IMG/VR virus record: IMGVR_UViG_3300005142_000031
Origin: an uncultured virus (IMG/VR IMGVR_UViG_3300005142_000031)
Taxonomy: Duplodnaviria; Heunggongvirae; Uroviricota; Caudoviricetes
Strand: one strand, 5' to 3'
Length of the DNA stretch: 64,000 bases
In this document: positions 1,914 through 63,762 of the stretch, in pieces
Position numbering within the stretch: position 1 is the first letter of the stretch
Layout: the number at the start of each line of letters is the position of its first letter
Notes under the pieces: model-generated
Told to the model about the DNA's origin: nothing
Databases searched by the model: none
What the model saw: only the letters and a program-made list of their open reading frames with translations
Position numbers and translations under genes: made by a program

Positions 1914-1987
1914 CCCATACCCTCCTGGTTTGAGCGATGACGTGCATACGTTCTATCACAAAGGGACATTGAGTTGAATAGGGATAC

Positions 1988-2018
1988 AAAAAAGCCCCGC
2001 AGACATTCTGCGGGGCTC
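1988..2018 (-). terminator. Rho-independent terminator
   Basis: Stem GCCCCGCAGA/TCTGCGGGGC with a 3-nt loop and a T6 tract on the minus strand, just after the 343-aa gene. Confidence 0.85.
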
Positions 2019-2036
2019 TCTTGCGAGCAATCTTGG

Positions 2037-3068
2037 TCAGACTTCAACCGCCAAGTTGATGTCAGGGAAAGCCTCCTCGAACAGTTCGAGCACCTTCTCG
2101 TAGCCGATCGACTGGAACACCTCGGCGCTCGGTGGCCCGGCCGGCTCGCCACCCTGGCCGGAGAAGTTGTTGACGAACTCCAGGCAGATGAACTCCAGGG
2201 CCACCGTGTCGACCGTGGTGCCCGCGGCCTCCTTGGCCTTGTCGAGCGCCGACTTGATCGTCTCGGCCTGATCCTCGTGGGCCTTGAAGGTCATCGTCGT
2301 GGTCTTGGCCGGCGCCGCGTCGTCACCACCCGAGTTCGACTCACCTTCGCCCTTGAACTGCTTGACCTCCTCGATCAGCTCCTTGGTGGTCAGGGTCTTG
2401 GCCTTCTCCACCCAGTGATCGACGTTGTCCGAGGTCAGGACTGGCGAGACCTCCTTGATCTTGGTCCAGCCGACCGCCTTCACCTTGTCCCAGGGGACGC
2501 CGGCCTCGACCAGGTCGTTGTAGATCTGGATCGCGTACATCGCCGTCCGGTACTTGATGTTGAATTCGGCCTCGATGTACTCCTTCAGCGACCCGTGCTC
2601 GCCGAACCAGCCGTTCTCCTGGATCTTCGAGAGCACGCCGCCCATCTTGAAGAACGAGAACTCGGTGTCCTCGACGATCTGGTGCAGCGCCGCATGGCAC
2701 TGGCTCTCGTTCAGGTTCTCGATCTCGAACGCCGTCTTGGCGATCAGGTCGGTGTTGCCCTCGACGATCTCGCCGTTGAGTACCGACCCCTGGGTGGCGA
2801 CCGCGCCGGCACTGTCGGGATACAGAGCCTGGATCAGGGCCGCCTTCTTATCGGCGACCTTGAGCGTCGAGTAGTTGTCGATCTCCCACGGCATCTGGCC
2901 GTACAGCGCATCGAGCTGCTTGCCGTTCATCTTGTTGATCTCGGCCGGGCTCGGGGTCTGGGCCACGTCAGCCTCCTGCTGGTTCTGGGCCTGGGTGTCG
3001 GACGGGGTTTCGGCTTTGGCCGGTTGACCCTGCATGCCGTCGAGCACGGCCATCGTTGCGACTGACAT
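2037..3068 (-). CDS. Hypothetical acidic protein, probable DNA-binding protein (HTH-like core, possible ribbon-helix-helix-like C-terminus)
   Basis: Own promoter and strong SD. Segments GSLKEYIEAEFNIKYRTAMYAIQIY and VGWTKIKEV are HTH-like; TTMTFKAHEDQAETIKSALDKAKE is strand-helix-helix-like. Function is inferred. Confidence 0.6.
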   Translation of the reverse strand: MSVATMAVLDGMQGQPAKAETPSDTQAQNQQEADVAQTPSPAEINKMNGKQLDALYGQMPWEIDNYSTLKVADKKAALIQALYPDSAGAVATQGSVLNGEIVEGNTDLIAKTAFEIENLNESQCHAALHQIVEDTEFSFFKMGGVLSKIQENGWFGEHGSLKEYIEAEFNIKYRTAMYAIQIYNDLVEAGVPWDKVKAVGWTKIKEVSPVLTSDNVDHWVEKAKTLTTKELIEEVKQFKGEGESNSGGDDAAPAKTTTMTFKAHEDQAETIKSALDKAKEAAGTTVDTVALEFICLEFVNNFSGQGGEPAGPPSAEVFQSIGYEKVLELFEEAFPDINLAVEV

Positions 3069-3101
3069 CCTGTCTTTCCCTCCTTGGGTTTCGATACGAT
3101 T

Positions 3102-3129
3102 ACGGTACCATGAGTGCAATCAATTGCAA
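3102..3129 (-). promoter_or_regulatory. Putative sigma70-type promoter overlapped by a palindrome copy
   Basis: TTGCAA-16 bp-TACCGT on the minus strand; the -35 and spacer coincide with the palindrome at 3115-3128. Confidence 0.5.
3115..3128. repeat. Dispersed palindrome TGCAAT-NN-ATTGCA (intergenic)
   Basis: TGCAATCAATTGCA read directly. Confidence 0.95.
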
Positions 3130-3141
3130 ATGAATTGACAC

Positions 3142-3666
3142 TCAGGCAGCCTCGACCGAGACATGGCGCATCTTGGCCATCGCCTCGTCCTGCGCCTTGG
3201 TCAGATCGGTCAGGTGGTCGAGCGCGGCGAGGCCCATGCAGGCCAGACCGAAGGCGTCGGCCAGGTCGTTCGACGGCGCCTCGTAGCCCCAGCGCTTGAA
3301 CACCTGCATCATCATCTGCTCCTTCTTGGCGTTGCCGGTGCCGGTGACGAACTTCTTCAGAGTCGCTGGCGCCACCAGGTGGAACGACAGGCCGTGCTGC
3401 AGCAGAAACCAACGCAGCACCGTGCCGACCTCGACCAGGGGCACCAGCGTGTGGGCGTTGGCGTAGCCATAATCCTCGATCACCACCACGTCGGGCCGGG
3501 TCTCGATCACCAGCGAGGACAGCTGGTCGGCCATCGCGCTGTAGCGCCCGTACCACTTCTTTTTCGGCGCCTGGATCACCCTCTCGATCACGATCTGCGG
3601 GCCCGGACACAGCATCACCGCTCCGGTGGCGGTCGACGAGATGTCGAGACCGAGCGCGAGCGTCAT
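3142..3666 (-). CDS. ruvC: RuvC-like Holliday junction resolvase
   Basis: LGLDISSTATG, VVIED, ATLKKFVTGTGNAKK and NDLADAFGL supply the D, E, D, D catalytic residues. Confidence 0.9.
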   Translation of the reverse strand: MTLALGLDISSTATGAVMLCPGPQIVIERVIQAPKKKWYGRYSAMADQLSSLVIETRPDVVVIEDYGYANAHTLVPLVEVGTVLRWFLLQHGLSFHLVAPATLKKFVTGTGNAKKEQMMMQVFKRWGYEAPSNDLADAFGLACMGLAALDHLTDLTKAQDEAMAKMRHVSVEAA

Positions 3667-4589
3667 GCCAGGGCCTCCTCGAGATCGACCGGGTGGGCCG
3701 GCTGGGGTGCGTCCGCGGCGAAGCAGGCGCTGCTCACCGGACACTTCTTCGCCCGCTCGCACTGGGCGTTGTCGCAGACACCCGCCGGCATAGGGTGATC
3801 GACCCAAGTGCGGAACCGATGGTACAGCCCCGCCTTGATCCACAGGTCGTCGGTATCCTCGTCCTTGCGGGCGACTGCATACTCCTTGAACGGACTGTAC
3901 TTGTCGTCCGGGAAGTCATAGGCCTCGACCTCCTTGTCGAGACAGCCGAAGCCCCCCTTCGAGACATAGAGCACGATCGCGCTGTCGAGATCGACCTTGT
4001 CGGCGAACGGGTGTCCGCTGTCGGCGACGATGCGGAGGTAGAGATTGGTGCGCTGGCGGTGCTCGGCGATCGGCATCAGCAGCTTCTTGAACTCTTCCTT
4101 GTCGATCGACTTGACCTCGACCAGCTTGAAGCGGTCGCCGTTGGTCCTGGCGAAGCAGTCGATGCCGCAGCCGATGCCGGTCTCCTGCGATCGGAACCGG
4201 TGCTCCTCGGGCGCCAACGCCGTGCAGCCGCATCCGTGACAAGCCACTGGTCTCACCGTGAGCTCGTGCAATTGCTTGCACGCGACGCAGCGCCAATCGG
4301 TGACCGCCCGGCCCGACTCCACCAGCCAGTCGATCACCATGTCCTGAACCAGCCGGCCGATCGAGAAGGTCGTGGCCAGCGAGGTCGAAATGAACTGGTC
4401 GGGGGCTTTGTACTTGGTGAGGTCCATCAGAGCCCACTCTCGCGGACAGAACGTGCCCTTGGTCAGCTCCGATGCGTGCATGTTGATCCGCGACCGGGGC
4501 GGACTGCGATGCGCCAGCTTCTTGTGCAGATACCGCTTCAGGCGATGCTCGCCCTTATGCTCCTTCAGCGTCTTCAGCCATTTCGCCAT
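3663..4589 (-). CDS. PD-(D/E)XK exonuclease (Cas4/RecB-like) with Cys clusters
   Basis: HASEL..CPR, GIDCF, VEVKS, LYL and C-terminal cysteines. Confidence 0.8.
   Translation of the reverse strand: MAKWLKTLKEHKGEHRLKRYLHKKLAHRSPPRSRINMHASELTKGTFCPREWALMDLTKYKAPDQFISTSLATTFSIGRLVQDMVIDWLVESGRAVTDWRCVACKQLHELTVRPVACHGCGCTALAPEEHRFRSQETGIGCGIDCFARTNGDRFKLVEVKSIDKEEFKKLLMPIAEHRQRTNLYLRIVADSGHPFADKVDLDSAIVLYVSKGGFGCLDKEVEAYDFPDDKYSPFKEYAVARKDEDTDDLWIKAGLYHRFRTWVDHPMPAGVCDNAQCERAKKCPVSSACFAADAPQPAHPVDLEEALA
4267..4280. repeat. Dispersed palindrome, 1-mismatch variant (in exonuclease)
   Basis: TGCAATTGCTTGCA. Confidence 0.6.
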
Positions 4590-4941
4590 CCCTGGCCTCC
4601 GTCAATCTCCGGAACTCCTCCTCCCGGATCGCGATCCATCGCCCGTCCGGCACCGGCCGCCCGTCGGCATGCGTGAAGGTCAGCGCCACGGCCGGGCTCT
4701 TGCCGGCCATCCGCGCCTCGTCCACGATCTTCGACAGCCATCGGTACTGCAAGCCCAGACTGCTGCCGGTGGTCGATTTCGCCTCCACCCGGAAGGCCGG
4801 CAGGTCGATGTCGCCCTTCTCTGCGCCGGCGCCCGAGCCGGGGATCTGGCGACCACCCAGGCGGCGGGCGAGACGCCTCTCCGAGGCCCGGCCCGGGTCG
4901 CCGATGCGCTGGCCGCGCTTGCGGGCGAGATACGGATTCAC
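4555..4941 (-). CDS. Hjc-like Holliday junction resolvase / PD-(D/E)XK endonuclease
   Basis: GRASERRLA..PGSGA..KGDI..VEAKST pattern. Confidence 0.75.
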   Translation of the reverse strand: MNPYLARKRGQRIGDPGRASERRLARRLGGRQIPGSGAGAEKGDIDLPAFRVEAKSTTGSSLGLQYRWLSKIVDEARMAGKSPAVALTFTHADGRPVPDGRWIAIREEEFRRLTEARDGEMAEDAEGA

Positions 4942-7640: not shown

Positions 7641-7731
7641 CCGCAGGTCCCATCCATGGGAGAGGTGTGGGGCGCCGCCTGGGGAGGGGAGGCTGGCGGC
7701 GCCCCACGACCGGGCCGGAGGGGCGGCCCGG

Positions 7732-10140: not shown

Positions 10141-10163
10141 CAGGCTCTCCCATCCTTGGGATT

Positions 10164-10652: not shown

Positions 10653-10700
10653 CTCTTCATCTCCTCCTTGAGAGCTGTGGTGACCCGAGGGTCTGCGAAC

Positions 10701-10728
10701 AGTCTAACGCATTGGCGATGCTGGACAA
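10701..10728 (-). promoter_or_regulatory. Putative sigma70-type promoter
   Basis: TTGTCC-16 bp-TAGACT. Confidence 0.55.
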
Positions 10729-12559: not shown

Positions 12560-13467
12560 TCCTTCACCCCCATCGCCTTCAGGAGGTCGTGGGGCGCCTT
12601 CGTGGCCTGGGCCGGGCCCTGACCCTGCCGGAACCAGTTGACGGCCGTCTCGGCGTGCTTGAGCGCGAAGCCGACATCCGGCTTCTCGGGCACGAACTGC
12701 AGGCCCTTATCGGCCCGGACCTGGGCGACGAAGCCCGACCAGTCGGCGAGCACCCGCCCCAGCACCTCGGACGGCCGCTCGGCCGAGGCCACCGCCTTGG
12801 CGAACTGGCCGATCTGGCCCTGCTGCTTGCCGGTCAGCTTGGCGAACGTCCCGTCCCCGGACACCGCCTTCAGCCACTGCGTCACGAGCTGCTTGGGAGC
12901 ATCGGGATCAACGGCCTTGCCTTTCGGCTTCAGCTCCCAGGTCCGGTTCGCCAGGACATCTTCTGCCTTCACGGCGTAACCCTCCTCGTTTCCATCCTTG
13001 GAACTTCTCCCGGAATCTTCTTCGGTCTCCGGGCCGAGGTCAAGCGACGCGGCAGCGTCGCCCTTTTCTCCTCTCCTACTTTTCTCTCTAAAAAGAGATC
13101 GGGCCCTATGGGGCCTTTTGGTCCCTGAGCAAAGTGCCCTCTCGGGCCTTTTGCTATTCTGAGCAACGGGCCCGGACGGGCCCTTTGGGGTCTCGGTCTG
13201 TTCCGTGAACCAGACCTTCTTGGTGCCGCCGATATAGGCCTGTCGACGGTCGATCAGACCCTTCTCGGCGAGCTCCGTCGCGGCTCGACGAAACTGCTTC
13301 AGCGACAGTCCGCTATCCTCGCACCAGTCCTCGCGCGACCGGGCCACCCAGAACCGCCCGTCGCACTCCAGCATCCGGAACTGCGACCAGAACCGGATGC
13401 GGTACAGCAAGATGCCCGCGGCCATGTCCCCGGCCTCGCGGATCGCTTCTGCCAGCTTGGATGCCAT
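12556..13467 (-). CDS. Replication initiator protein (N-terminal winged HTH)
   Basis: WVARSREDWCEDSGLSLKQFRRAATELAEKGLI winged helix, then a low-complexity linker containing DNA repeats; lies upstream of loader and helicase. Confidence 0.75.
   Translation of the reverse strand: MASKLAEAIREAGDMAAGILLYRIRFWSQFRMLECDGRFWVARSREDWCEDSGLSLKQFRRAATELAEKGLIDRRQAYIGGTKKVWFTEQTETPKGPSGPVAQNSKRPERALCSGTKRPHRARSLFREKSRRGEKGDAAASLDLGPETEEDSGRSSKDGNEEGYAVKAEDVLANRTWELKPKGKAVDPDAPKQLVTQWLKAVSGDGTFAKLTGKQQGQIGQFAKAVASAERPSEVLGRVLADWSGFVAQVRADKGLQFVPEKPDVGFALKHAETAVNWFRQGQGPAQATKAPHDLLKAMGVKE
13060..13196. repeat. Putative replication origin: iteron-like repeats plus pyrimidine/AT-rich tract inside the initiator gene
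   Basis: GGGCCTTTTG..CTGAGCAA.G.GCCC at 13111 and 13144, GGGCCCTTTG at 13178, adjacent tract TTTTCTCCTCTCCTACTTTTCTCTCTAAAAAGAGAT. Confidence 0.6.
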
Positions 13468-13492
13468 TCACCCCTCCCCCGTCCTCTGGATG

Positions 13493-13525
13493 AAAAAGCC
13501 CCGCACGGCAGGACCATGCGGGGCT
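13493..13525 (-). terminator. Rho-independent terminator
   Basis: GCCCCGCA/TGCGGGGC stem followed by T5 on the minus strand. Confidence 0.8.
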
Positions 13526-13541
13526 CATACGGTGGCAGCGA

Positions 13542-14138: not shown

Positions 14139-14183
14139 CTCCTCCTTGAGCATTGGCGTCTTTGGTTGGAAAGAACCAACACC

Positions 14184-14211
14184 AGTCTAGCCCTGTATGC
14201 AGCGAAGTCAA
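14184..14211 (-). promoter_or_regulatory. Sigma70-type promoter
   Basis: TTGACT-16 bp-TAGACT with an AT-rich upstream element. Confidence 0.75.
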
Positions 14212-16683: not shown

Positions 16684-16698
16684 GGGAACCCTCCTTGG

Positions 16699-17556
16699 TC
16701 AGCTGGGAAACAGCGCTCCCCAGGTCTTGCGGCCGACGATCCCGTCGGCGGTGAGCCCGGCCGCTTGCTGGAAGGCGACCACGGCGTCGTGGGTCTTCGG
16801 TCCGAAGATACCGTCGGGAACCAGGCCGAGGCGTTTCTGCACCGACACCACTCGAGCCCCGGCGCTGCCCAGCTTGATCAGGGTCGCCGGCGCGGCGCCG
16901 CGGGCGCGGTCATAGGCCTGGGCGAGCTTCTGGGCGTACCGGTTGCGCCAGTAGCCGGGCCCGTTGTAGCCGCGAGCGAAGGCAGCCCAGTCCTTGGCGC
17001 GCAGCGGCTCGACCAGCTTGGTGGTCTTCAGGAAGCCGAGCACGGCCTGCAGCTGGTGAGCCTCGTCGCGCGCCATCGCCGCGGCGAAATCTTGCACTGT
17101 GCCGAAGCCGCAGGCTTCATGGTTGAACCCCATGATCTGGAACAGGCCCCAGCTCGCGGACTTCAGCGCAGCCTCGGCGTCGAAGGTCATTGCCTTGGCC
17201 AGGCGCTCCCACTCGCCCAGCCCGCCGACATAGTCGACCTCGCCCCAGTGCTCGGCCCAGACGCCGGCCGAGGCGGCGCCGAATGGCGGGTCGGGCACCA
17301 GCCGACCGAAGACGTGCGGCTCGTAGAGGATGCGGGGCAGACGGGTCGGCAGCGCGAGGTCGGTCAGGGCGTCACCGGTGGACCGACGCAGGACCTCGTG
17401 GTCCGGGTCATCGATGAAGCCGGCGCCGGCGGATTCGATCTCAATCACCGCCTGCAGCACGGCGACCTCGACCCCGATGCCCTTGGCGGCGGCCTCGACC
17501 GCGTCCGGCGTCAACGGCGCTCCGGTCGAATAGAAGCCGGTCAGGGTCTCCAGCAT
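16699..17556 (-). CDS. Endolysin: N-acetylmuramidase (DUF3380-type) with C-terminal peptidoglycan-binding domain
   Basis: AVIEIESAG, ILYEPHVF, SASWGLFQIMGFNH, FARGYNGP, DGIFGPKT..FQ..GL..DGIVG..TW. Confidence 0.93.
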   Translation of the reverse strand: MLETLTGFYSTGAPLTPDAVEAAAKGIGVEVAVLQAVIEIESAGAGFIDDPDHEVLRRSTGDALTDLALPTRLPRILYEPHVFGRLVPDPPFGAASAGVWAEHWGEVDYVGGLGEWERLAKAMTFDAEAALKSASWGLFQIMGFNHEACGFGTVQDFAAAMARDEAHQLQAVLGFLKTTKLVEPLRAKDWAAFARGYNGPGYWRNRYAQKLAQAYDRARGAAPATLIKLGSAGARVVSVQKRLGLVPDGIFGPKTHDAVVAFQQAAGLTADGIVGRKTWGALFPS

Positions 17557-17599
17557 CCTCGCCTCCTTGCGACGGCCTCCTTGCCGATGCCGAGTCTAG

Positions 17600-34455: not shown

Positions 34456-34627
34456 CGATCCGCTCCTTCGGTGCATGGCCAGTGTCGGGGGGCAGCTTGT
34501 CTGCCCATAGCACCCGCACTCTACAAGGGGCGTTGGCTTTCGCAATCGCCTGGGCGGGGTCGCGGGCCAGCTTTGCGGCCAGGATCTCGCCGTTGGTCCG
34601 CTGGACGATGAACACCTTGACCCGCAT
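34400..34627 (-). CDS. Small hypothetical protein
   Basis: MRVKVFIVQRTNGEILAAKL..., with AAGGA SD just after a palindrome copy. Confidence 0.55.
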   Translation of the reverse strand: MRVKVFIVQRTNGEILAAKLARDPAQAIAKANAPCRVRVLWADKLPPDTGHAPKERIDGTRGDEPERRASVRLEG

Positions 34628-35835: not shown

Positions 35836-35881
35836 GTCTCAGTTCCTCTTCCTTGAGGCTCGTCCTTGAGCCGTCGAGCGG

Positions 35882-38877: not shown

Positions 38878-38910
38878 CCTGTCCGCACTCCTTTGCTTCG
38901 ATCAGGCAAC

Positions 38911-39943: not shown

Positions 39944-39991
39944 CGTGTCCTCCGTTCCTTCGGACAATCGGGTTACGGGACGGCTCTGCGG

Positions 39992-49128: not shown

Positions 49129-49162
49129 CTCTACCCTCCTTGGTTTGGTGAACCCTTCATCC

Positions 49163-49190
49163 AGTCTAACAAAAGACGTAGCTGGGTAAA
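49163..49190 (-). promoter_or_regulatory. Putative sigma70-type promoter
   Basis: TTTACC-16 bp-TAGACT. Confidence 0.6.
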
Positions 49191-49929: not shown

Positions 49930-49955
49930 GGGGTGCCCTCCTTGGCTTTCCCGGG

Positions 49956-51023: not shown

Positions 51024-51072
51024 GGGATCACCATCCTTGGTTTCGTTGTCCCACAGACATCGTCGCTAAGGT

Positions 51073-51711: not shown

Positions 51712-51735
51712 CGTCGGCCCTCCTTGGCCTGGGTT

Positions 51736-51751: not shown

Positions 51752-52096
51752 TCAGCGGTTGCCTGCCAGCCCGCCGGCAATCCGCCGCAAAGCATCCTCG
51801 TCGTCGGTCAGGCGCAGGGTGCGCCGACCTGGACGCGGCCGGGGACCGGACGGGGGTCCGGCCACCGTCATCGCGGTCTTCTCGTCGGTGGCCAGAACGT
51901 CGATGTCGACCACCACGCCGTCATCAATCCGCATGACGTAGTGCTCGTAGCGGCGGTTGCCGCGCTGATGACGCAGCGGCACCGAGTGACGAGCCATCCA
52001 GGCGACGCGCTCGGCGACCTTGCCGTACATGCCGAGCCGGCGCGCCTTGACGGTCACGTCGTCGGTCACGTCGAACTGTCGGAATCCGGTGGTCAT
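51752..52096 (-). CDS. Hypothetical protein
   Basis: ATGA-coupled to the CsrA-like gene; H..GNRRY motif. Confidence 0.7.
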   Translation of the reverse strand: MTTGFRQFDVTDDVTVKARRLGMYGKVAERVAWMARHSVPLRHQRGNRRYEHYVMRIDDGVVVDIDVLATDEKTAMTVAGPPSGPRPRPGRRTLRLTDDEDALRRIAGGLAGNR

Positions 52097-52389
52097 CGCT
52101 GTCGCCTCTCCTTCGGCTGCTTGGCGCCAGTATACATGTCCTTGCGCAGGATCGTGACCTCCCTGGGCGCATCCACGGCCACCCTGGCAGTCAGCACCTG
52201 TGCCCGGTCTCCCACCGACAGGAAGACGTTGGGCATGACCTCGGTGGCACGGTCATCGACGATGTCGAACACCGCGCCATCCGGGCGCTGCACCTGGATA
52301 TGGTGGTCCGAGAACACCTCGTGGACGACGAGCTTGTGGTCGTCCACGAAAAACTCCTCGCCCTTGCGGAGCGTCAGGATCAAAGGCAT
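52093..52389 (-). CDS. csrA: CsrA/RsmA-like RNA-binding protein with ~35-aa insertion or tandem repeat
   Basis: N-terminus LILTLRKGEEF resembles CsrA MLILTRRVGE; C-terminus RVAVDAPREVTILRKD resembles VRIGVNAPKEVSVHREE including the key Arg. Confidence 0.75.
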   Translation of the reverse strand: MPLILTLRKGEEFFVDDHKLVVHEVFSDHHIQVQRPDGAVFDIVDDRATEVMPNVFLSVGDRAQVLTARVAVDAPREVTILRKDMYTGAKQPKERRQR

Positions 52390-52393
52390 GGCA

Positions 52394-54475
52394 TCATCCC
52401 TGGCCGAGAACGCCGTAGGCCACGTACTCCGCGGGCAGCGCCCCGGCGAACTCCCGGACATCCTTGCCGGACTGGTTCATCAGGGCGATGATCTGCCGCA
52501 CCGAATCGGGGCCGACGACGGGATCATCCTTGATCGCCTGCGACACTACCACAAGCCCTTCGGCCGACAACAGGTCGTTGAGCGAGTCCACTATGGGCAG
52601 CACCGTCAGACCCGCCGCCTCCGCGGTCGCCTGATGGTCGGTGATCAGCACCACCTTGTCCTTGATCCCCAGGGACTGCAGCCAGCCGATGATCGCCTTG
52701 TCGCTGATGCCAGCCTTGGTCTCGGTCGGCGGGAACAGGCTGACGATCGGATCAGTTTCCGGGCTGGGTGGCTGCGGGCGCCGGATGTCGAGGTACACCG
52801 TGCCGTCCACAGCCGCCAGCTGGTCCTCGAGACCGCTCAACCACTGACTGGTACCCTGGTTTGGCATGTGCTGCTGCAGTCGGTACAGCTTGCCGGCCGC
52901 CGGCGTGTCGCTGGCTGCCAGCGTCCCCGCCTTGTCCATCGCCCAAGCCAACACCGTCTGCACCGCGTCGTGCTGCGATCCATCGATCACCGGAACATCG
53001 ATGTCGAGCCAGACATGGCCGGTGCCGCCGTCGATGGTGACCTTCTTACCGGCAACGATATAGGCCGCACCGGTACAGCCGACCACGCAGGGCTGATCCA
53101 TCGAGCGGGCGACCACCGCAGCGTGGCTGGTGGCACCACCGCGGCTGGTCAGGATACCGGCCGCGGCCTCCATGCCGGCAATATCGTCCGGCGTGGTCTC
53201 TTCGGCGACCAGGATCGCCGTCTTGCCCATCTTGACCGCCTCGTCCGCCGACAGGCAGGCAATCCCGGTGACCACACCGGGGCTCGCCGGCAGCCCCTCG
53301 TAGAGCGGCGGGGTATTGAACGCCGGATCGACCATCGGCCGGGTTGCCAGGGCGAGCTGGCTGGGCTTGATCCGCTTGAGCGCTTCGTCCCGGTCGATCA
53401 GTTCCTCCTCGACCAGGTCGACGGCGATGCGGAACGCCGCCAGGGCCGAGCGCTTGCCGACCCGGCACTGCAGCAGGTAGAGCACACCGTCCTGGACCGT
53501 GAACTCCAGGTCCATCATGTCCCGGTGATACTCCTCCAGCTTGCGGGCGATGCCGTACAACTGCTCGGTCTGCTGGGGCCACAGGTCCATCATCTCGACG
53601 ATCGAGTACGGCGTCCGGGTGCCGGCGACCACGTCCTCGCCCTGGGCATTGGGCAGGAACTCGCCGAGGATCTCGTTGTCCCCGGTCGACGGGTTGCGGG
53701 TGAACATCACCCCCGAGCCCGAGTCGTCGTTCATGTTGCCAAACACCATGGCCTGGACGTTGACCGCGGTGCCCATCGCCTCGTCGATGCCGTTCATCTG
53801 GCGGTAGTGCTTGGCCCGGTCGTTGTTCCAGGACTCGAACACGGCGAGCATCGCGGAGCGCAGCTGCTCCCAGGGGTCATCCGGGAAGCTGTCCCCGGTA
53901 ACCTCCTTGAACGCCAACTTCAGCCGGGCGACCAGTCCTTCCAGCGCGTTCACCGAAAGGTCGCTGTCGAGCAGAGCCTCGTCGGCGGCCTTGAAGTCGT
54001 CTACGATCTGGTCGAACACCTTGGCGTCGATGCCGAAGGCGGTGGTGCCGAGCATCTGGATCAGCCGGCGGTAGCTGTCGAGCGCCGCCCGCTCGCCGAT
54101 GCGCTCCTTCCAGGCTGTCAGGTTCTTGTTGCTCAGCCCGACGTTGAGGATCGTGTCCATCATGCCGGGCATCGACAGAGGTGCTCCGGAGCGCACGCTG
54201 ACCAGCGGCATGAAGCCGAACTGCGAGCGCAACCAGGTCATCTGCTTCTCGACCTGCTCCATCAGATCGTCGATCATCTTGGCATCGAAACCGTCGCCCT
54301 TGCGCACCGCGTGGCAGACCGAGGTCGCGATGGTAAACCCCGGTGGCACCGGGATATCCATCTCGGTCATCAGGGCGAGGCCGTAGCCCTTGCCACCTAG
54401 CACATCCTTGCCGTGCGACAGCACGGGCGAGGTGCCCGGGCCGAAGCGAAACATCGGGAACACCATCTTGGTCAT
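52394..54475 (-). CDS. PPDK-like dikinase: ATP-grasp and phospho-His domains, lacking the pyruvate-binding barrel
   Basis: LGGKG, PVPPGFTI, LVSVRSGA..SMPGMMDT, GTAVNVQAMVFGN, QGEDVVAG, DLEFT, LLQCR, GGATSHAAVVAR; then ~175 unrelated aa. Start 54475 or 54484. Confidence 0.9.
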   Translation of the reverse strand: MTKMVFPMFRFGPGTSPVLSHGKDVLGGKGYGLALMTEMDIPVPPGFTIATSVCHAVRKGDGFDAKMIDDLMEQVEKQMTWLRSQFGFMPLVSVRSGAPLSMPGMMDTILNVGLSNKNLTAWKERIGERAALDSYRRLIQMLGTTAFGIDAKVFDQIVDDFKAADEALLDSDLSVNALEGLVARLKLAFKEVTGDSFPDDPWEQLRSAMLAVFESWNNDRAKHYRQMNGIDEAMGTAVNVQAMVFGNMNDDSGSGVMFTRNPSTGDNEILGEFLPNAQGEDVVAGTRTPYSIVEMMDLWPQQTEQLYGIARKLEEYHRDMMDLEFTVQDGVLYLLQCRVGKRSALAAFRIAVDLVEEELIDRDEALKRIKPSQLALATRPMVDPAFNTPPLYEGLPASPGVVTGIACLSADEAVKMGKTAILVAEETTPDDIAGMEAAAGILTSRGGATSHAAVVARSMDQPCVVGCTGAAYIVAGKKVTIDGGTGHVWLDIDVPVIDGSQHDAVQTVLAWAMDKAGTLAASDTPAAGKLYRLQQHMPNQGTSQWLSGLEDQLAAVDGTVYLDIRRPQPPSPETDPIVSLFPPTETKAGISDKAIIGWLQSLGIKDKVVLITDHQATAEAAGLTVLPIVDSLNDLLSAEGLVVVSQAIKDDPVVGPDSVRQIIALMNQSGKDVREFAGALPAEYVAYGVLGQG

Positions 54476-54512
54476 CTTCACCATCCTTGGTTAGTTTCCT
54501 ATGACCATCTTC

Positions 54513-54540
54513 AGTCTAGCACAGGACTAGACTTGTTCAA
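54513..54540 (-). promoter_or_regulatory. Putative sigma70-type promoter of the PPDK-like/CsrA/phosphatase operon
   Basis: TTGAAC-16 bp-TAGACT. Confidence 0.65.
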
Positions 54541-58512: not shown

Positions 58513-59072
58513 CCGTCACCTTCCTTGGTCATCAGCCAGTCATCGAGGTCGATCTCGTGCAGACCCTCCAACGGCAGGTTCACGCACTCGGTATGGCCGC
58601 AGCACGCCATGAGGATGTCGATCGACGCCGGCTCGGTGAACGCCCGGAGCCACACCAGCTGCGACACAGGTCCGCCATGGGTGGCGCAGAAGGGCAAACC
58701 CCAGAAGGCCACTTCCTCGGGCCAGTATGCCGGTCGCAGGGTCCTCATGGTGATCGTTCGGAGACTGGGCACCTGGAGCCAGGTCAAGTCGAGGTGCGCC
58801 TCCTCGACTTTGCTGTGTGGGACCTTCTTCTCGTAGCTCTTGCCGCAATAGCCACAGGTCCAGACCGCCTTCCACGCCTGATCAGCGATCCGGTATTCAA
58901 CCTCCAGGCTGTCGGCGAACCGACCACAGATGCCACAGGATGGCTTACTGTGGAACGGCCAGACTTCCTGCGTCTTGTAGCTCAGCGGCAGTGGTGCACC
59001 CGCGTAGGCGAACGCTTTTTCAGCCTTGGCGAAGACCTTGGTATCCGCCATCTCGTCGAACAGCGCGACCAT
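58509..59072 (-). CDS. Hypothetical Cys-rich (zinc-binding) protein
   Basis: CGIC..CGYC, then CATH..CCGH: two putative Zn ribbons. Confidence 0.7.
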   Translation of the reverse strand: MVALFDEMADTKVFAKAEKAFAYAGAPLPLSYKTQEVWPFHSKPSCGICGRFADSLEVEYRIADQAWKAVWTCGYCGKSYEKKVPHSKVEEAHLDLTWLQVPSLRTITMRTLRPAYWPEEVAFWGLPFCATHGGPVSQLVWLRAFTEPASIDILMACCGHTECVNLPLEGLHEIDLDDWLMTKEGDG

Positions 59073-59075: not shown

Positions 59076-59483
59076 TCACCTTCCTTGGTTCCAGGCCGTG
59101 ATGTCTTCCCAGTACAGTTCGCCCGGCCGCTCGCGCTTGTGCCAGCGGTAGCCCTCGCAGCTCTTCGGGGTGCGCACGCCGGAGAAGCGGTTGTCGAGGA
59201 TCAGCACGCCGGCATCGGTATCGACCGACAGCACCGCGTGGTAGGTGCCGGTCTCGTCCCAGCACAGGGTGATCTTCAGGTCCTCGCGCGGATAGCCCAT
59301 CTTCATCAGCCGGTGCAGCTTGGCCAGGGCATAGTCCTCGCAGTCGCCCTCCTCGTCCGGGATCTCCCAGAGATCGAGCCGGCCGTACTTCTCCGGATCG
59401 GGGACGTACTTGATCTGCGCGTTGATCGTGCGCTGCACCAGGCTGATCCGCGCAGCGTTCTCGTGGGTCAGCTGGATGGGCAT
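59076..59483 (-). CDS. Transglutaminase-like cysteine peptidase (BTLCP/LapG-like) catalytic domain
   Basis: D.W..GDCEDYALAK, HAVL, ILDN give the Cys-His-Asp triad; own GGAGG SD. Confidence 0.9.
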   Translation of the reverse strand: MPIQLTHENAARISLVQRTINAQIKYVPDPEKYGRLDLWEIPDEEGDCEDYALAKLHRLMKMGYPREDLKITLCWDETGTYHAVLSVDTDAGVLILDNRFSGVRTPKSCEGYRWHKRERPGELYWEDITAWNQGR

Positions 59484-59665: not shown

Positions 59666-60195
59666 CCCTCAACCTCCAGCTCGGCGATCTGGGCATCGAG
59701 CTGCGCATACAGCCGCTCCAGCGACCCCGCGTTGTCGATGGTCAGGTCGTGCGAAATCCGCTCCAGCTCGGTCTCCGAGCGGTGCTTCTCGTGGGTCGAG
59801 CGTCGGCCGGTCAGCCGCCACAGCTCGCCGCCGAGCTCTCGGATGCCTTCCGCCTCGCTGAAGAACCGCACGTCGTCGATCACCACGTCGTAGTCGACGC
59901 CGATCAGCGAGCGCTGCAGCAGGTGCACCCAGAACCGCTCGCCGATCAGGTCGCGGCCCCATTCGGTGCCCAGGGTCTGCATGGCGTAGGCCGGGGTCTG
60001 CCCCAGCAGCAGATCGCAGGGCTCGGTCTTGAGGTCCCCATTGAGCTGGCGCTCGTCGAGGCCGAGCGCGCGCAACATCGCCTTCAACGGCGTGGCGAAG
60101 GAGCGGCGCTCGAAACCGTGATGTCCCTGCAGGTGCAGCGCGGCGGTGGTCTTGCCGCTGCCGCGGGGGCCGATCAGGCCGATGATCATCCTCAC
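59662..60195 (-). CDS. Deoxynucleoside monophosphate kinase
   Basis: IIGLIGPRGSGKT, SFATPLK, MQTLGTEWGR, VIDDVRF..E, HRSE. Confidence 0.92.
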   Translation of the reverse strand: MRMIIGLIGPRGSGKTTAALHLQGHHGFERRSFATPLKAMLRALGLDERQLNGDLKTEPCDLLLGQTPAYAMQTLGTEWGRDLIGERFWVHLLQRSLIGVDYDVVIDDVRFFSEAEGIRELGGELWRLTGRRSTHEKHRSETELERISHDLTIDNAGSLERLYAQLDAQIAELEVEG

Positions 60196-60228
60196 CCTCC
60201 TTGGTCTACCCGTCCTTGGGTGGCGAGA

Positions 60229-60257
60229 AGTCTACGGCCTGAATCCAGGCTGATCAA
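60229..60257 (-). promoter_or_regulatory. Putative sigma70-type promoter
   Basis: TTGATC-17 bp-TAGACT. Confidence 0.55.
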
Positions 60258-60297: not shown

Positions 60298-61443
60298 TCA
60301 GTTGACGATCTTGCGCCGCGCGTAGTTCAGCGCGTCCAGGCTGTTGCGCATGGCCTCGACCATCGGCCACAGGCCCTCCCGAGTCGTGCCATCGAAGTAC
60401 AGCACGCAGGCCTCGCTCGATAGCTGGCGCAACAGTATCCCGCCCGCCCAGACCAGCCGCCGAGCCAGCAGGTCGCCCTCGGCTCGGAACAGCAGGTCGC
60501 CCAGAAAGTCGACCCGCTGCTTGCCGTTCTCGAACGGCAGGTGCTGGATCAGCTTGGCGACCGGGGTCTCCATCTTGGCGAAATACGCCAGCGCGCGCTT
60601 GCCCTCCTGGGTATGCCAGTCGAACGTGTAGCTGGGATACGGGCCGATCATCTCGACCTCTGGCATCGGGTCGTCGTGCGTCTGGGGCCGGGGCCGGGTC
60701 CCGTCGCCCCACACCTGCTGCCAGAGCAGGGCGAAGGGCATCGACATCTGGTCGCATCCGATCGCGTTGGCCTGGCGCACCGTGTACAGGACGTCGTCCG
60801 GCACGCCGAGCCCGCGCACTGCCTTGAACCAAGGGCCCACCCCGCCCTTGCGACTCGGAAACCCCGCCTTCGGATCTTCCGAGTCGCGCTGGCCACGCAG
60901 CAGGGTCAGCGCCATGATCCGCGTGGTCCGGGGCTGATGCTCGTCCAATGCAATCAATTGCAGTTCATGGTCGGACAGCTCGGCCATGTTCTGCCGGGCG
61001 GCATGCCAGTTCCGGTGCCAGTAGACCGCGACCGGCCCGTCGCAGGCGGTGCGGTCGCCCGGTGCCTCGCACAACCGCCTGACCAGGGCCATCAGCCCCG
61101 GCTTCTCGCCGTGCTGCTCGCGCACCGCCTTGGCGCTGCAGAACCGCACCAGAGCCATCATGCCATCGAGATCGGCGATACCGACATCCTCGAAGCCGAT
61201 AATGGTCAACCGGCGCCAGAGATAAGCCGGGTCGACCTGCCGCACGCCCTCCGCCATCTTCAGCGCGGTGTCGACATCGCCGCGGCGCACCGCTTTCTGC
61301 AGAGCCGAGATCATCCGCCACTTGCGCTGCGGGTCCGACACGCGGACCGCCGGGGTCTCCGGGGCCTCGACGACCCACTGGCTGAGCAGGTCGTCGGCCT
61401 TCTGTTTCTGGGGCTTGTATCCCTGCACGTCCCTACCATCCAT
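60298..61443 (-). CDS. RarA/MgsA C-terminal-like protein without AAA+ ATPase domain
   Basis: MISALQKAVRRGDVDTAL, YLWRRLTIIGFEDVGIAD, PSYTFDWHTQEG; no Walker A. Confidence 0.75.
   Translation of the reverse strand: MDGRDVQGYKPQKQKADDLLSQWVVEAPETPAVRVSDPQRKWRMISALQKAVRRGDVDTALKMAEGVRQVDPAYLWRRLTIIGFEDVGIADLDGMMALVRFCSAKAVREQHGEKPGLMALVRRLCEAPGDRTACDGPVAVYWHRNWHAARQNMAELSDHELQLIALDEHQPRTTRIMALTLLRGQRDSEDPKAGFPSRKGGVGPWFKAVRGLGVPDDVLYTVRQANAIGCDQMSMPFALLWQQVWGDGTRPRPQTHDDPMPEVEMIGPYPSYTFDWHTQEGKRALAYFAKMETPVAKLIQHLPFENGKQRVDFLGDLLFRAEGDLLARRLVWAGGILLRQLSSEACVLYFDGTTREGLWPMVEAMRNSLDALNYARRKIVN
60949..60962. repeat. Dispersed palindrome (in RarA-C-like gene)
   Basis: TGCAATCAATTGCA. Confidence 0.95.
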
Positions 61444-61464
61444 GGTTTCGGTTCCCGTTCATTC

Positions 61465-61492
61465 ATTCTACCAATTTAACCAGGCCAAGCAA
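61465..61492 (-). promoter_or_regulatory. Putative sigma70-type promoter
   Basis: TTGCTT-16 bp-TAGAAT. Confidence 0.55.
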
Positions 61493-62984
61493 GATGGCCC
61501 GTGGCCGCACCGGCGTCGCGCAGGCCATGCCGGTACTTCAGCTTGAGTCGATACTCGTTCCAGGCAGTGCCCATCGAGTAGCTCGTGCGGTGCCGCGAGC
61601 GCTGATAGACGGTGTACAGGTGGCGCAGCGTGCCGGCCTCGTGCAGGCCCTTCAGCGCGTCGGCGAACAGGAAGTCGGGCTTGCCCCGGGCCCAGTCCAG
61701 CACGCCCGCGACCACCTCGTTCTCGTCGGACTCGCCGGTCCCGGTCCGACCGATCCGCTCGGCCAGGCCCTGCTCGAACCGGTCGAGGAACTCGTCGAGC
61801 AGGAGCGGGAACCAGCGGTCGTTGCGCTCGGCCATCATCAGCGCGAACACGTCCTCGGACCACGCCCGGAACTTGGCATACATGCCCTCGTAGTCCTCGT
61901 AGAAGGCCTTGAGCACCGCATAGGCCTCGCTCTCGCCCGAGACCAGGAATGGGTAGTCCTTGCCGAAGGTCGCCTCGGACCAGGCCGCCCTGTTGAACAC
62001 CCCCGGCACCCCCAGCATCACCGGTTCGATCAGGCTGAGCGGGTAATCCTCGTCGTCGGACAGGGCCAGGATCAGGTCGGCCTCTTCGCGCATCACCCGC
62101 CAGAACTCCTCGCGTGGACAGCGCTTCACCTCCAGGTGCTCATGCTTCTCGTAGTCCTCGGTGACCCGGCTGTTCGAGGTCAGCAGGAACCGGATCGGCC
62201 GCCGGCCGCCCCAGTACACCCACTGCTTGAGGAACACCGACAGGGCGGGCTCCTTCGAGGTGCGCTCAGACTTGCGCCGCGACACCCGCTGGGTATAGGC
62301 CACCGCGAACGGCCGCTCATGGGCGGCGACCGCCTTGACCTGCTCGGCCGAACGGGTGTGCACCTGGTCGACCCGGATCGAGGACGCCGCCACCAGCCGA
62401 TCGGACAGCTCGCGCACCCTGCTGGGCGGAAACCAGCTGCGGGCCTCCTTCAGGATCAGCCTGGTCGAGGCGAACGAGAAGATCAGCGACAGGTCGGCGG
62501 CCATGTAGCCGGTCAGGGCGAGCAGATCGCCCGAGCGCGGGTCGGGCTGACACACCCTGTTCTTGAACGACATGATCGGGAACTCATCGTCGATCACGAT
62601 CGCCTTGGTCCAGGCCCGGTTCGACCGGGACATCCACATCCTGAGCGTCGGCACTTGGGTCGAGCGGGCGGTGAGCAGCACGTCGAAATCCCACAGCGGC
62701 CCGTTGTAGGCGACGGCGTTCTCGATGTCGGCGTTGACCCGGGCGTACTCCTTCATCCGGTCGGGGTCGACCGACACCGGCACGTAGCGCACCCGCGGGT
62801 CGCGGATCAGCCAGTCATGGTCGATCGTCCAGCTGCCGCCCGAGGTCTCCGGGTCGGGCAGCAGGTAGTACACGAACAGGTCGTCCCGCCGCTCCAGCAA
62901 GTAGCGGATCATGGTCTGCATCTTGAAGTGGCAGGAGCAGAGCTGCGGGTCATTGGTGCTGATCGGATCGACGAGCAGTCTCAT
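61476..62984 (-). CDS. GT-B fold glycosyltransferase-like protein
   Basis: YTQRV..K, PREEFW..ADLIL..S..EDYPLSLIEPVMLGVP (E-x7-E-like motif), F..DYPF. Confidence 0.75.
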   Translation of the reverse strand: MRLLVDPISTNDPQLCSCHFKMQTMIRYLLERRDDLFVYYLLPDPETSGGSWTIDHDWLIRDPRVRYVPVSVDPDRMKEYARVNADIENAVAYNGPLWDFDVLLTARSTQVPTLRMWMSRSNRAWTKAIVIDDEFPIMSFKNRVCQPDPRSGDLLALTGYMAADLSLIFSFASTRLILKEARSWFPPSRVRELSDRLVAASSIRVDQVHTRSAEQVKAVAAHERPFAVAYTQRVSRRKSERTSKEPALSVFLKQWVYWGGRRPIRFLLTSNSRVTEDYEKHEHLEVKRCPREEFWRVMREEADLILALSDDEDYPLSLIEPVMLGVPGVFNRAAWSEATFGKDYPFLVSGESEAYAVLKAFYEDYEGMYAKFRAWSEDVFALMMAERNDRWFPLLLDEFLDRFEQGLAERIGRTGTGESDENEVVAGVLDWARGKPDFLFADALKGLHEAGTLRHLYTVYQRSRHRTSYSMGTAWNEYRLKLKYRHGLRDAGAATGHLAWPG

Positions 62985-63739
62985 GCCCAGGCACTCATGT
63001 CGACGGCAGTGCGATTGGCCGTACCGGTGCCCAGGTCGGCGCCGATAGCCTGCCGGCACCAATCCGGACCGGCAACGAACAGCGGGTCGAGAGCGGACAG
63101 CCGCAGCGTCGGCTCGGGGCAGAGCCGCGGGGCGTCCGGGGCCGGCCAGTTCTGGCCCCAAAGCCGGATACCCTTCGGCGCGAACCGGCCTTTCTCGAAA
63201 TAGTTCTCGATCGACACCACTCCCTGGATGTAGTCCGTGCCGCCTGCCGCCTGGGTCAGTCGGGCCAGCCATTCAGTTGGCTCCTCGGGGCGCACCGGGA
63301 CCAACTGCTTGGACTTGCGGATCACCGGATAAAGCCCGAGCTCGATCGCCAGCCAGTCCATGGTCGTCTCGGCCAGCGACGCCAGCGTCCAGGGTCCCTT
63401 GTCGACCAGATGGTCGAGCAGACCGTCGAACGATGTCTTGACCTCGCGGTAGCCGTCGCACTTGCCGTAGACGTGCTGGCAGCGCTTCTGCAGCTTGTCG
63501 GCCCACTGGTCGAGCTCGGCCACCGCGATCTCGTCCATCGGCCGGCGGTTCTTGTCGCGGCAGGGCACCGGGATCTTGTGCACGCCGTCCTTCTGGCCGA
63601 GCTGAAACCAGCTGTGCTCGGCCGAGCGGCTGTGCTGGGCCTCCTCCATGATCACCACGACGTGGCAACGGGCGAAGCGCTCGTACATGTAGAGCGGCGG
63701 GAACATCAGAGGCTGGGTCGCGGTCACCCAGATCGGCAT
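62981..63739 (-). CDS. WbqC-like family protein
   Basis: QPLMFPPLYMYERFARCHVVVIMEEAQ, IPVP, VYGK, IRKS, WLARL..AGGTDYIQG, LSALDPLF..G follow the WbqC layout. Confidence 0.8.
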   Translation of the reverse strand: MPIWVTATQPLMFPPLYMYERFARCHVVVIMEEAQHSRSAEHSWFQLGQKDGVHKIPVPCRDKNRRPMDEIAVAELDQWADKLQKRCQHVYGKCDGYREVKTSFDGLLDHLVDKGPWTLASLAETTMDWLAIELGLYPVIRKSKQLVPVRPEEPTEWLARLTQAAGGTDYIQGVVSIENYFEKGRFAPKGIRLWGQNWPAPDAPRLCPEPTLRLSALDPLFVAGPDWCRQAIGADLGTGTANRTAVDMSAWA

Positions 63740-63762
63740 GGTGCCCTCCTTGGCAGCTAGGA

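Follow-up and report, generated by a model that had tools for sequence, protein, structure and literature searches.

We analysed a stretch of 64,000 nucleotides (nt) of DNA, hereafter the window, from an uncultured virus of the Caudoviricetes (IMG/VR record IMGVR_UViG_3300005142_000031), in which the Shine-Dalgarno (SD) sequences of many genes lie in the loops of short RNA hairpins and in which a CsrA-like protein is encoded. The hairpins are real, co-varying elements at the RNA level and have the ANGGAN hexaloop geometry of Csr/Rsm target sites. A tie between the hairpins and the CsrA-like gene is supported by comparison of related sequences, namely by their co-occurrence, by the relation of the beta1 subtype of the protein to the closing pair of the hairpins, and by the hairpin that precedes the protein's own operon. 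These results point, with moderate probability, to a phage-internal Csr/Rsm-like circuit, in which the CsrA-like protein would bind the SD hairpins of promoter-proximal genes and of its own operon and compete with the ribosome there. A preliminary description of the window had listed the hairpins and the CsrA-like gene, and had proposed that the protein controls the translation of most phage genes, perhaps as a lysogeny or timing switch.

All 25 hairpins of that list were confirmed on the minus strand, which is the mRNA sense; 23 of them have ANGGAN hexaloops and 2 have AGGAN pentaloops. A site was counted as stemmed when at least 3 Watson-Crick pairs flanked the loop, and the ribosome-binding site (RBS) zone was taken as -30 to +6 of the 71 called starts. 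Gene calls in the window came from a simple purpose-written open reading frame (ORF) caller; a count of hairpins without gene calls agreed in the relatives. As the null model, the 5′ flanks were permuted among the same sites in 20,000 shuffles, which kept the position-specific composition. In the RBS zone, 25 of 54 ANGGAN sites were stemmed compared with 3.5 ± 1.7 by permutation, and no shuffle exceeded 13, so that the repeated stems of the preliminary description stood up against shuffled controls. For AAGGAN the corresponding values were 21 of 32 and 3.8 ± 1.7 (maximum 11). Of the 210 ANGGAN sites in the remainder of the sense strand 11 were stemmed versus 5.2 by permutation (P ~0.015), and on the antisense strand, counted without permutation, 1 of 61. 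Because the permutation preserves position-specific composition, the excess represents covariation and not an extended SD consensus.

The stems themselves showed the same feature. At the 32 AAGGAN sites, the third pair was complementary in 23 versus 8.7 expected (C-G 9, A-U 7, G-C 6, U-A 1), the fourth pair was weakly favoured (11 vs 6.1) and the fifth gave no signal. The stem triplets in the window vary (ACC, GCC, CUC, CGC, GGC, CCG, GCA, UCC, CCC and others), with at least 10 different ones. The hairpins are given below in mRNA sense, together with the orthologous hairpins of Rhodobacter phage RcZahn and Rhizobium phage RHph_TM16 (TM16) where these are compared. "PPDK" stands for a pyruvate-phosphate-dikinase-like gene.

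63742..63755, minus strand: SD hairpin UGCC-AAGGAG-GGCA, gene 62981-63739
61435..61446, minus strand: SD hairpin ACC-AUGGAU-GGU, gene 60298-61428; RcZahn ortholog GGC-AAGGAG-GCC
60208..60221, minus strand: upstream tandem hairpin ACCC-AAGGAC-GGGU, dNMP kinase gene; 28 nt from the start, too distant for an SD
60194..60205, minus strand: SD hairpin ACC-AAGGAG-GGU, dNMP kinase gene 59662-60189
59078..59089, minus strand: SD hairpin ACC-AAGGAA-GGU, gene 58509-59072
58518..58529, minus strand: SD hairpin ACC-AAGGAA-GGU, ParB-like nuclease gene 57658-58512
54480..54491, minus strand: SD hairpin ACC-AAGGAU-GGU, head of the PPDK/CsrA-like operon; candidate autoregulatory site
51716..51729, minus strand: SD hairpin GGCC-AAGGAG-GGCC, phosphatase-like gene 51073-51711; TM16 ortholog ACC-ACGGAG-GGU
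51030..51041, minus strand: SD hairpin ACC-AAGGAU-GGU, gene 49956-51023; RcZahn ortholog AACC-AAGGAG-GGUU
49935..49946, minus strand: SD hairpin GCC-AAGGAG-GGC, gene 49201-49929; RcZahn ortholog UAGG-AAGGAG-CCUA
49133..49144, minus strand: SD hairpin ACC-AAGGAG-GGU, gene 48289-49128
39951..39964, minus strand: SD hairpin UCCG-AAGGAA-CGGA, major capsid gene 38957-39943
38885..38896, minus strand: SD hairpin GCA-AAGGAG-UGC, gene 38536-38877
35857..35872, minus strand: upstream tandem hairpin GGCUC-AAGGAC-GAGCC, gene 34897-35835
35845..35858, minus strand: SD hairpin CCUC-AAGGAA-GAGG, tail gene 34897-35835
34460..34471, minus strand: SD hairpin CCG-AAGGAG-CGG, gene 34018-34455
17573..17586, minus strand: upstream tandem hairpin CGGC-AAGGAG-GCCG, endolysin gene
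17559..17572, minus strand: SD hairpin UCGC-AAGGAG-GCGA, endolysin gene 16699-17556; RcZahn ortholog AGC-AUGGAG-GCU
16687..16700, minus strand: SD hairpin GACC-AAGGAG-GGUU, gene 15889-16683
14139..14150, minus strand: SD hairpin CUC-AAGGAG-GAG, gene 13542-14138
12990..13003, minus strand: lone upstream hairpin UUCC-AAGGAU-GGAA, gene 12556-12972; 27 nt from the start
10660..10673, minus strand: SD hairpin UCUC-AAGGAG-GAGA, gene 10164-10652
10148..10161, minus strand: SD hairpin UCCC-AAGGAU-GGGA, gene 9787-10140
7648..7661, minus strand: SD hairpin UCCC-AUGGAU-GGGA, helicase gene 6291-7640
4585..4596, minus strand: start-region hairpin GCC-AGGGAU-GGC, exonuclease gene 3663-4589; a weaker case, within the upstream gene

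The loop geometry was restricted. Clear enrichment was limited to the NNGGAN hexaloop register, the pentaloop class was weaker (9 of 125 stemmed vs 1.9 ± 1.4 by permutation, maximum 8), and the geometries NGGAN, NNGGANN and NGGANN showed little or no enrichment. Within stemmed NNGGAN sites the first loop position was A in 25 of 26 in the window, 25 of 28 in RcZahn and 15 of 16 in TM16, even where the second position was C. SD pairing does not need an invariant A at this position whereas the Csr/Rsm motif ANGGAN does, and thus the loop fits the Csr/Rsm motif. The window hairpins therefore present GGA as Csr/Rsm targets do, in an ANGGAN hexaloop on a short stem, and they likewise lie on the SD, with a further site upstream in several cases. 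GGA-loop hairpins were also seen inside coding regions of the minus strand (3927-3948, 48989-49004, 33838-33851 and 52522-52535), one of them with an 8-bp stem, GUCUCGAC-AAGGAG-GUCGAGGC; these could be internal starts or additional binding sites.

The position of the hairpins in the transcripts was also analysed. At most sites the loop begins 12-17 nt before the start codon, indicating that the loop is the functional SD. Hairpins were carried by 22 of the 71 called genes, including capsid, tail, endolysin and replication genes. The median intergenic gap before these genes was 47.5 nt versus 2 nt for 48 other genes, and the hairpin-bearing genes are operon-first or uncoupled genes. Moreover, each of the six TAGACT copies on the sense strand has a hairpin 12-70 nt downstream, and a TTGnnn hexamer lies 16-17 nt upstream of five of the six boxes. 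These sets resemble sigma-70-type promoters with short leaders and are likely host-type promoters that define the phage operons. The predicted promoters are as follows.

60229..60234, minus strand: -10-like TAGACT with TTGATC 17 nt upstream, before the dNMP kinase hairpins
54513..54518, minus strand: -10-like TAGACT with TTGAAC 16 nt upstream, PPDK/CsrA-like operon
49163..49168, minus strand: -10-like TAGACT with TTTACC 16 nt upstream, before hairpin 49133-49144
17593..17598, minus strand: -10-like TAGACT abutting a TGCAATTGATTGCA palindrome, before the endolysin hairpins
14184..14189, minus strand: -10-like TAGACT with TTGACT 17 nt upstream, before hairpin 14139-14150
10701..10706, minus strand: -10-like TAGACT with TTGTCC 16 nt upstream, before hairpin 10660-10673

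Tandem sites were present at three genes (dNMP kinase, tail gene 34897-35835 and endolysin), where a second GGA-loop hairpin lies 13-15 nt above the SD hairpin. These upstream hairpins are 26-32 nt from the start codon, too distant to serve as SD.

The CsrA-like ORF pointed out in the preliminary description proved to be a real gene (52093..52389, minus strand), with ATG at 52389 and a product of 98 aa, the second gene of the PPDK operon. Its start lies 4 nt beyond the stop codon of PPDK, and its end shares an ATGA with the following gene. The Pfam CsrA match of the product covers residues 68-87 only. A word-based protein search with the window protein returned only the protein itself, and a locus search with this single protein returned its own phage and two weak loci; a scan of genome contigs gave 6 weak, unrelated loci. 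An exhaustive HMMER search put 348 clusters in the family at E <= 1e-3 and 63 at E <= 1e-10, and almost all of these proteins are 85-120 aa long. Pfam CsrA was matched by 71 of 85 aligned family members at E <= 0.01, with a best value of 2.5e-10. When the family profile was compared with the PDB, all 11 matches were CsrA, RsmA, RsmE, RsmN and RsmF chains (best E 2.7e-4). The alignments span beta1 (LxLxLR.GE) and beta5 plus the helix (ARv.idAPr.i.ilRge.Y), the R44-equivalent arginine included. Arg44 and beta1/beta5 are RNA-contacting parts of CsrA. In the window protein MPLILTLRKGE aligns to CsrA residues 2-20 and ARVAVDAPREVTILRKDMY to CsrA 27-53, so that both RNA-contact motifs of the CsrA family are conserved in it, with ~38 residues inserted between them. 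P75 is nearly invariant across 85 sequences, and the 8 closest all have I80 and R82.

The predicted structure departs from that of a typical CsrA/RsmA subunit. An AlphaFold (AF2) monomer computed with the family alignment had a mean predicted local distance difference test (pLDDT) score of 92.3 and showed nine strands and a short C-terminal helix, whereas CsrA subunits have 55-75 aa, five strands and a C-terminal helix and form an interdigitated homodimer. A Foldseek search of the PDB returned nothing at E <= 1e-3, with RsmF and RsmN at ranks 2 and 4. With VIA-align, the whole Pseudomonas aeruginosa RsmA chain superposed on residues 36-93 (Z 4.4, root-mean-square deviation 2.2 Å, 57 of 57 residues, 21% identity), RsmE on residues 38-94 (Z 3.7), and RsmN and RsmF on residues 1-86 (Z 4.4-4.5, ~31% identity). 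The top VIA matches (viral fusion-protein domain I and CcsBA, Z 6-8.7) were judged to be generic beta-sandwich likeness. By its length and predicted structure the window protein is classed as a divergent, long CsrA derivative and not as a canonical member. Taking the weak Z values and the sequence evidence together, we read it as a partial N-terminal CsrA unit probably fused to a complete C-terminal unit, which would give a single beta1+beta5 RNA site per chain.

The PPDK-like gene itself (52394..54484, minus strand) is the first gene of the operon; it matches a PHROG kinase family at 6e-154 and is syntenic with RcZahn gp6 and TM16 EVB27_131. Its real start is probably the ATG at 54475. Eighty viral-contig loci were retrieved with a PPDK alignment, and 10 of them, judged to be near-duplicates, were dropped. 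A long CsrA-like gene lay directly 3′ of PPDK in 67 of the 80 loci, and dual-specificity phosphatase-like genes were usually seen near the PPDK/CsrA-like pair (the window; loci L020-L099). The pair couples a phosphoenolpyruvate-utilising enzyme to a CsrA-like regulator. An in-frame hairpin preceded the PPDK ORF in 38 of 55 evaluable loci, with 13 different stem triplets. The spacing from loop to start was 3-11 nt in 29 of the 38; in the other 9 the in-frame start found overlaps the 3′ side of the hairpin. The window copy (L020) is such a case, and its likelier start is an in-frame ATG further downstream. The covariation score at the 38 sites was 0.74, compared with 0.17 after shuffling (0 of 500 shuffles reached 0.74) and at most 0.16 when the partners were slid.

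The relatives of the window with and without the gene were then compared. Judged by the capsid protein, the isolated phages nearest to the window are RcZahn (65%), RHph_TM16 and RHph_Y1_11 of Rhizobium, those of the Stenotrophomonas DLP_5 group and SIO-2-like phages of Vibrio; the genomes of these relatives are 80-101 kb. In a tblastn search of 50,697 phage records with three family members, only RcZahn, RHph_TM16, RHph_Y1_11 and three Stenotrophomonas DLP_5-like phages carried the family. The same gene caller and hairpin test were applied to every complete genome, and the family profile was searched in six frames.

Window: family gene E 7e-38; stemmed ANGGAN near starts 25/55; permutation 3.4
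RcZahn: family gene E 4e-30; stemmed ANGGAN near starts 25/89; permutation 2.4
RHph_TM16: family gene E 8e-30; stemmed ANGGAN near starts 15/71; permutation 1.3
DLP_5: divergent family member E 5.5e-10; stemmed ANGGAN near starts 1/70; permutation 0.8
RcTiptonus: no family gene; stemmed ANGGAN near starts 1/57; permutation 0.7
SIO-2: no family gene; stemmed ANGGAN near starts 0/33; permutation 0.5

The comparison with related phages that lack the gene, which the preliminary description had named as a check, thus separated RcTiptonus and SIO-2 from RcZahn and TM16. RcTiptonus shares its R. capsulatus host strain with RcZahn, to which its backbone is related, and its near lack of hairpins indicates that they are not a host requirement. 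In the viral contigs RBS-like sites were counted without gene calls, as ANGGAN followed by ATG or GTG 2-11 nt past the loop, with an ORF of 50 codons or more.

Loci with the gene: 57; stemmed 180/1149
Loci without the gene, with 3 kb or more of sequence downstream of PPDK: 7; stemmed 0/86
Loci whose contig ends too early to tell: 6; stemmed 3/54
Opposite strand of all 80 loci: stemmed 0/231

By locus, the difference between gene and no gene was significant (Mann-Whitney, p = 8e-4), and at least 3 hairpins were found in 29 of the 57 gene-bearing loci. The stems vary from lineage to lineage (ACC/GGU, AUC/GAU, UAC/GUA, UCA/UGA and GCA/UGC in the contigs). TM16 loops are mostly ACGGAG, and one locus shows UAC-A[U/A/C/G]GGAG-GUA, indicating that the second loop base is free. 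Moreover, the closing pair varied with the protein: it was C-G in 104 of 117 hairpins where the beta1 type was L[VI]L[ST]L, and A-U in 52 of 63 where it was LS[IL]G[VI]. Five genes carry a hairpin in both the window and RcZahn, and their stems are all different.

In the circuit that we propose, promoter-proximal genes with short leaders would carry an SD core, A-N-G-G-A-N, that forms the hexaloop of a 3-5-bp hairpin. The 98-aa protein, with its beta1 and beta5 motifs in one chain, would bind the loops and the closing pair, and the bound protein would occlude the ribosome-binding site and lower the translation of ~22 operon-first genes. Its own operon, composed of promoter, hairpin, PPDK and CsrA-like gene, would be among the targets, so that negative feedback might serve the control of dose or timing. 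For the CsrA-like protein we infer binding, repression as its sign, autoregulation and a single-site architecture. Of the earlier proposal that this protein controls most phage genes, the association of gene and hairpins was supported by the comparative data; "most" was too wide for hairpins at only 22 of the 71 genes.

A number of observations weigh against this circuit. The three inner pairs of the PPDK-site alignment are paired through the selection of the sites; the fourth pair, for which no selection was made, pairs in 21 of the 38. The Pfam CsrA (PF02599) match of the window protein (E 1.2e-5, 25.6 bits) is under the curated cut-off of 27, and the structural matches to Rsm proteins (Z 3.7-4.5) are weak and little proof alone. 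The gene-less set, with 7 loci, of which L097-L099 are maybe near-duplicates of one another, and 2 genomes, is small. As it is also phylogenetically clustered, and as the two beta1 types correspond to two clades, the number of independent events behind the correlations is low. Hairpins are only partly conserved between orthologs of the window and RcZahn (in both 5, in the window only 11, in RcZahn only 1, in neither 20). Moreover, no such hairpins were present in 12 of the 57 gene-bearing loci, among them that of Stenotrophomonas phage DLP_5, whose complete genome gave 1/70, indicating that the gene is not sufficient or that the target differs there; the protein of these relatives may read another motif or have another role. 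The DLP_5 family member lies at L006:37984-38325, other hairpin-free loci are for example L040, L045, L053, L083 and L084, and a GGA-anchored covariation map of DLP_5 gave weak signals only. Finally, the stems are weak (-0.4 to -6.0 kcal/mol, mean -2.7), the mean closing-pair probability in a 66-nt context is 0.49, and the GGA is predicted to be unpaired with a probability of 0.77 at hairpin sites versus 0.53 at 29 stemless ANGGAN sites in RBSs. The hairpins thus raise the predicted accessibility of the SD, and a purely cis-acting role fits too.

Such a cis-acting role would mean that the mini-hairpins present the SD unpaired in GC-rich leaders and thereby enhance de novo initiation at operon-first genes, while the CsrA-like gene acts elsewhere, for example on host mRNAs. 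Besides the accessibility of the GGA, the location of the hairpins behind gaps, where initiation is uncoupled, and the gene-bearing loci without hairpins agree with it; phage CsrA homologues have also been proposed to manipulate hosts, e.g. CRISPR-Cas, in the accessible part of one paper (Campa et al., 2021, PMC8450108). However, hairpins for initiation alone should not be nearly absent from RcTiptonus (1/57), which shares its host with RcZahn, or from gene-less relatives (0/86). The upstream tandem hairpins are not placed as SDs, an invariant loop A1 with a free second position is unnecessary for SD pairing, and the closing pair tracks the beta1 type of the protein. We consider this explanation rather unlikely.

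An opposite sign of regulation is also to be weighed. CsrA activates and stabilises the flhDC mRNA in E. coli, and the CsrA-like protein could bind 5′-proximal hairpins and activate or stabilise the mRNAs, by shielding the short leader from 5′-end-dependent RNases or by keeping the SD open. Although the hairpins are only ~10-45 nt downstream of the -10 boxes, near the predicted 5′ ends, and head essential late genes (capsid, tail, endolysin) whose shut-off would be unfavourable for the phage, the GGA loop is itself an SD at normal spacing, so that a bound protein should compete with the ribosome. Activation is therefore held to be unlikely.

T4 RegB cleaves GGAG in early SDs, and the reader of the hairpins could similarly be a host factor, such as a chromosomal CsrA/RsmA, another RNA-binding protein or a RegB-like SD endoribonuclease, which would make translation of the phage follow the physiology of its host. 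In their general shape, the loop and closing pair do match Csr/Rsm targets, but RcTiptonus is nearly without hairpins in the same R. capsulatus strain, and the hairpins track a phage gene and its subtype. S. meliloti, from the same family as the bacteria that the Rhizobium relatives infect, reportedly has no chromosomal csrA (PMC7366521). A host reader is accordingly improbable. A role at the DNA level, with the inverted repeats as protein-binding dyads, promoter elements or copies of one repeat that form no RNA structure, is highly improbable in spite of the nearby promoters and the recurrence of ACC-AAGGAN-GGU several times, because pairing is kept while the sequence changes (the window has at least 10 stem triplets, and the orthologous PPDK site has 13), the motif keeps strictly to one strand and to its position relative to start codons (1/61 on the antisense strand of the window, 0/231 on the opposite strand of the 80 loci), and DNA-binding proteins read fixed half-sites and not complementarity.

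The rest of the window was characterised as follows. Its G+C content is 62-68%, all 71 called genes are on the minus strand, and the PHROG profiles matched by its proteins indicate a siphovirus. An integrase lies at the low-coordinate end. The PHROG matches further include genes of replication and recombination (RuvC, Cas4-like exonuclease, RecA/UvsX-like, helicase, primase, DnaB, DNA polymerase), of structure and lysis (endolysin, lambda-J-like tail genes, tape measure, major capsid, portal), and the PPDK-like gene of 696 aa, the ParB-like nuclease and the dNMP kinase. The gene order around PPDK is shared by the window, RcZahn and TM16. In a megablast of 20 kb of the window against phages, a single 83-bp match was the only one. 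The closest record is a provirus fragment of 43 kb judged 43% complete, from which the element is estimated at ~100 kb, and the window is only part of it.

No tRNA genes were found in the window. Two stretches hold no confidently called gene, 907-2036 (1.1 kb) and 12973-13541 (0.57 kb), and neither a tRNA nor an Rfam family match was found in them; the former adjoins the integrase and contains an AGGAG pentaloop hairpin at 1919-1929. The genes at 49201-49929 and 51073-51711 both match a PHROG that bears the name "thymidylate synthase". This name looks misleading, since the Pfam matches of one of the two are to families of dual-specificity phosphatases and relatives have tyrosine phosphatases annotated at this place.

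A 14-bp near-palindrome, TGCAATTGATTGCA, occurs at 17 places in the window with at most 2 mismatches, versus 0.17 expected; 13 copies are exact, and 11 of these are in mRNA sense. The copies, of 14 bp each, are at the following positions.

3115, 4267, 9257, 12239, 15512, 17600, 22138, 24684, 34642, 37643, 41757, 42828, 47039, 51736, 55066, 57778, 60949

Those at 17600, 51736 and 55066 are directly upstream of hairpin leaders or abut TAGACT, and several copies are intragenic. This distribution suggests a repeated, "stoperator"-like operator of a separate DNA-binding regulator. The proposal of a lysogeny or timing switch, which had been drawn from the absence of a cI-like repressor, was not upheld, since the window is only part of a ~100-kb element and this operator-like palindrome is present in 17 copies.

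More generally, PPDK-carrying siphophages (~80-120 kb, widespread) may use a single-chain CsrA derivative to read a code of stem and ANGGAN loop on their own promoter-proximal genes and operon, as an orthogonal, self-contained control layer whose C-G/A-U specificity has co-evolved with beta1; we regard this as an even prospect. If true, the circuit could also function where the host has no CsrA, and its use as a portable orthogonal translational regulator would be possible. Discussion of phage csrA homologues has so far centred on host manipulation; the comparative data here point to a phage-internal regulon. Such a regulon would comprise an RNA motif that can be read, two classes of protein/RNA specificity and a candidate autoregulatory loop, and the function of phage-encoded CsrA becomes directly testable in non-pathogenic, cultivable systems, namely Rhodobacter capsulatus with RcZahn gp7 and Rhizobium with RHph_TM16. 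The predicted long single-chain architecture would be a new structural form of a much-studied RNA-binding fold. SD-associated repeats such as those of mycobacteriophages, discussed below, may also be explained.

CsrA homologues of phages have been described before. They were found in 30 of 2517 phage genomes, and their role was called obscure, in the available text of Sobrero and Valverde (2020, PMC7366521). In Vibrio phage J26, a relative of the present group, ORF99 beside a tyrosine phosphatase is annotated as CsrA in the accessible part of PMC12038007, and the text available from PMC11879866 reports that knock-down of one homologue gave smaller plaques. A term search of the RcZahn paper (PMC8601537) found no mention of hairpin, stem-loop, Shine-Dalgarno or CsrA, and a literature search that covered main texts without supplements found no description of SD-loop hairpins as a phage's own CsrA regulon.

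The proposed circuit shares features with several known systems. CsrA, RsmA and RsmE repress translation at GGA-loop hairpins on the SD, as in E. coli glgC and in Pseudomonas hcnA bound by RsmE (PDB 2jpp). The window sites likewise are short-stem ANGGAN hexaloops on the SD, sometimes with a second site upstream, and the window protein keeps the beta1 and beta5 motifs and has its own operon as a likely, predicted target. Unlike these proteins it is phage-encoded, has 98 aa with ~38 extra residues, and its predicted targets are the phage's own genes; in place of a homodimer with two sites, a compact single chain with probably one beta1+beta5 site is predicted. Unlike in Csr/Rsm systems, no sponge RNA of the CsrB/RsmZ type was found in the 64-kb window, which is part of the element only (no Rfam family at gathering score). 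The sole GGA-dense 150-nt stretch (57976-58125) was rejected as a sponge RNA because it is Lys/Glu-rich coding sequence. RsmQ is reportedly a plasmid-borne csrA/rsmA homologue, and like the canonical csrA/rsmA of phages, plasmids and integrative conjugative elements the window gene is a CsrA-family gene on a mobile element. However, the products of the canonical mobile genes are described as very similar to bacterial CsrA and are proposed to act on host genes, and the accessible literature on them describes no regulon of hairpins at the element's own RBSs.

The Start-Associated Sequences (SAS) of Cluster K mycobacteriophages are a fixed 13-bp 5′-GGGATAGGAGCCC whose reader is unknown, according to the available text of Pope et al. 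(2011, PMC3203893). The same text shows likenesses to the window hairpins: a repeated SD-core motif with complementary GGG...CCC ends, a few bases upstream of 11-19 starts, in one orientation and phage-specific. SAS are fixed and, in that text, accompany non-structural genes only, whereas the window stems vary and co-vary around an ANGGAN loop, structural genes are included and a candidate reader is encoded. The window sites do not follow the fixed 13-bp GGGATAGGAGCCC near starts (at most 2 deviations allowed), as their stems vary; their position relative to starts is similar.

T4 phage offers a further comparison at the level of the regulator. T4 RegA is a small phage RNA-binding protein that represses the translation of many phage mRNAs, its own included, at AU-rich linear sites near AUG. 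Like RegA, the CsrA-like protein is proposed to be one small phage protein that acts where ribosomes bind on many mRNAs of its phage, among them the mRNA that encodes it; unlike RegA, it has an unrelated fold and would recognise GGA hairpins instead of AU-rich linear sites.

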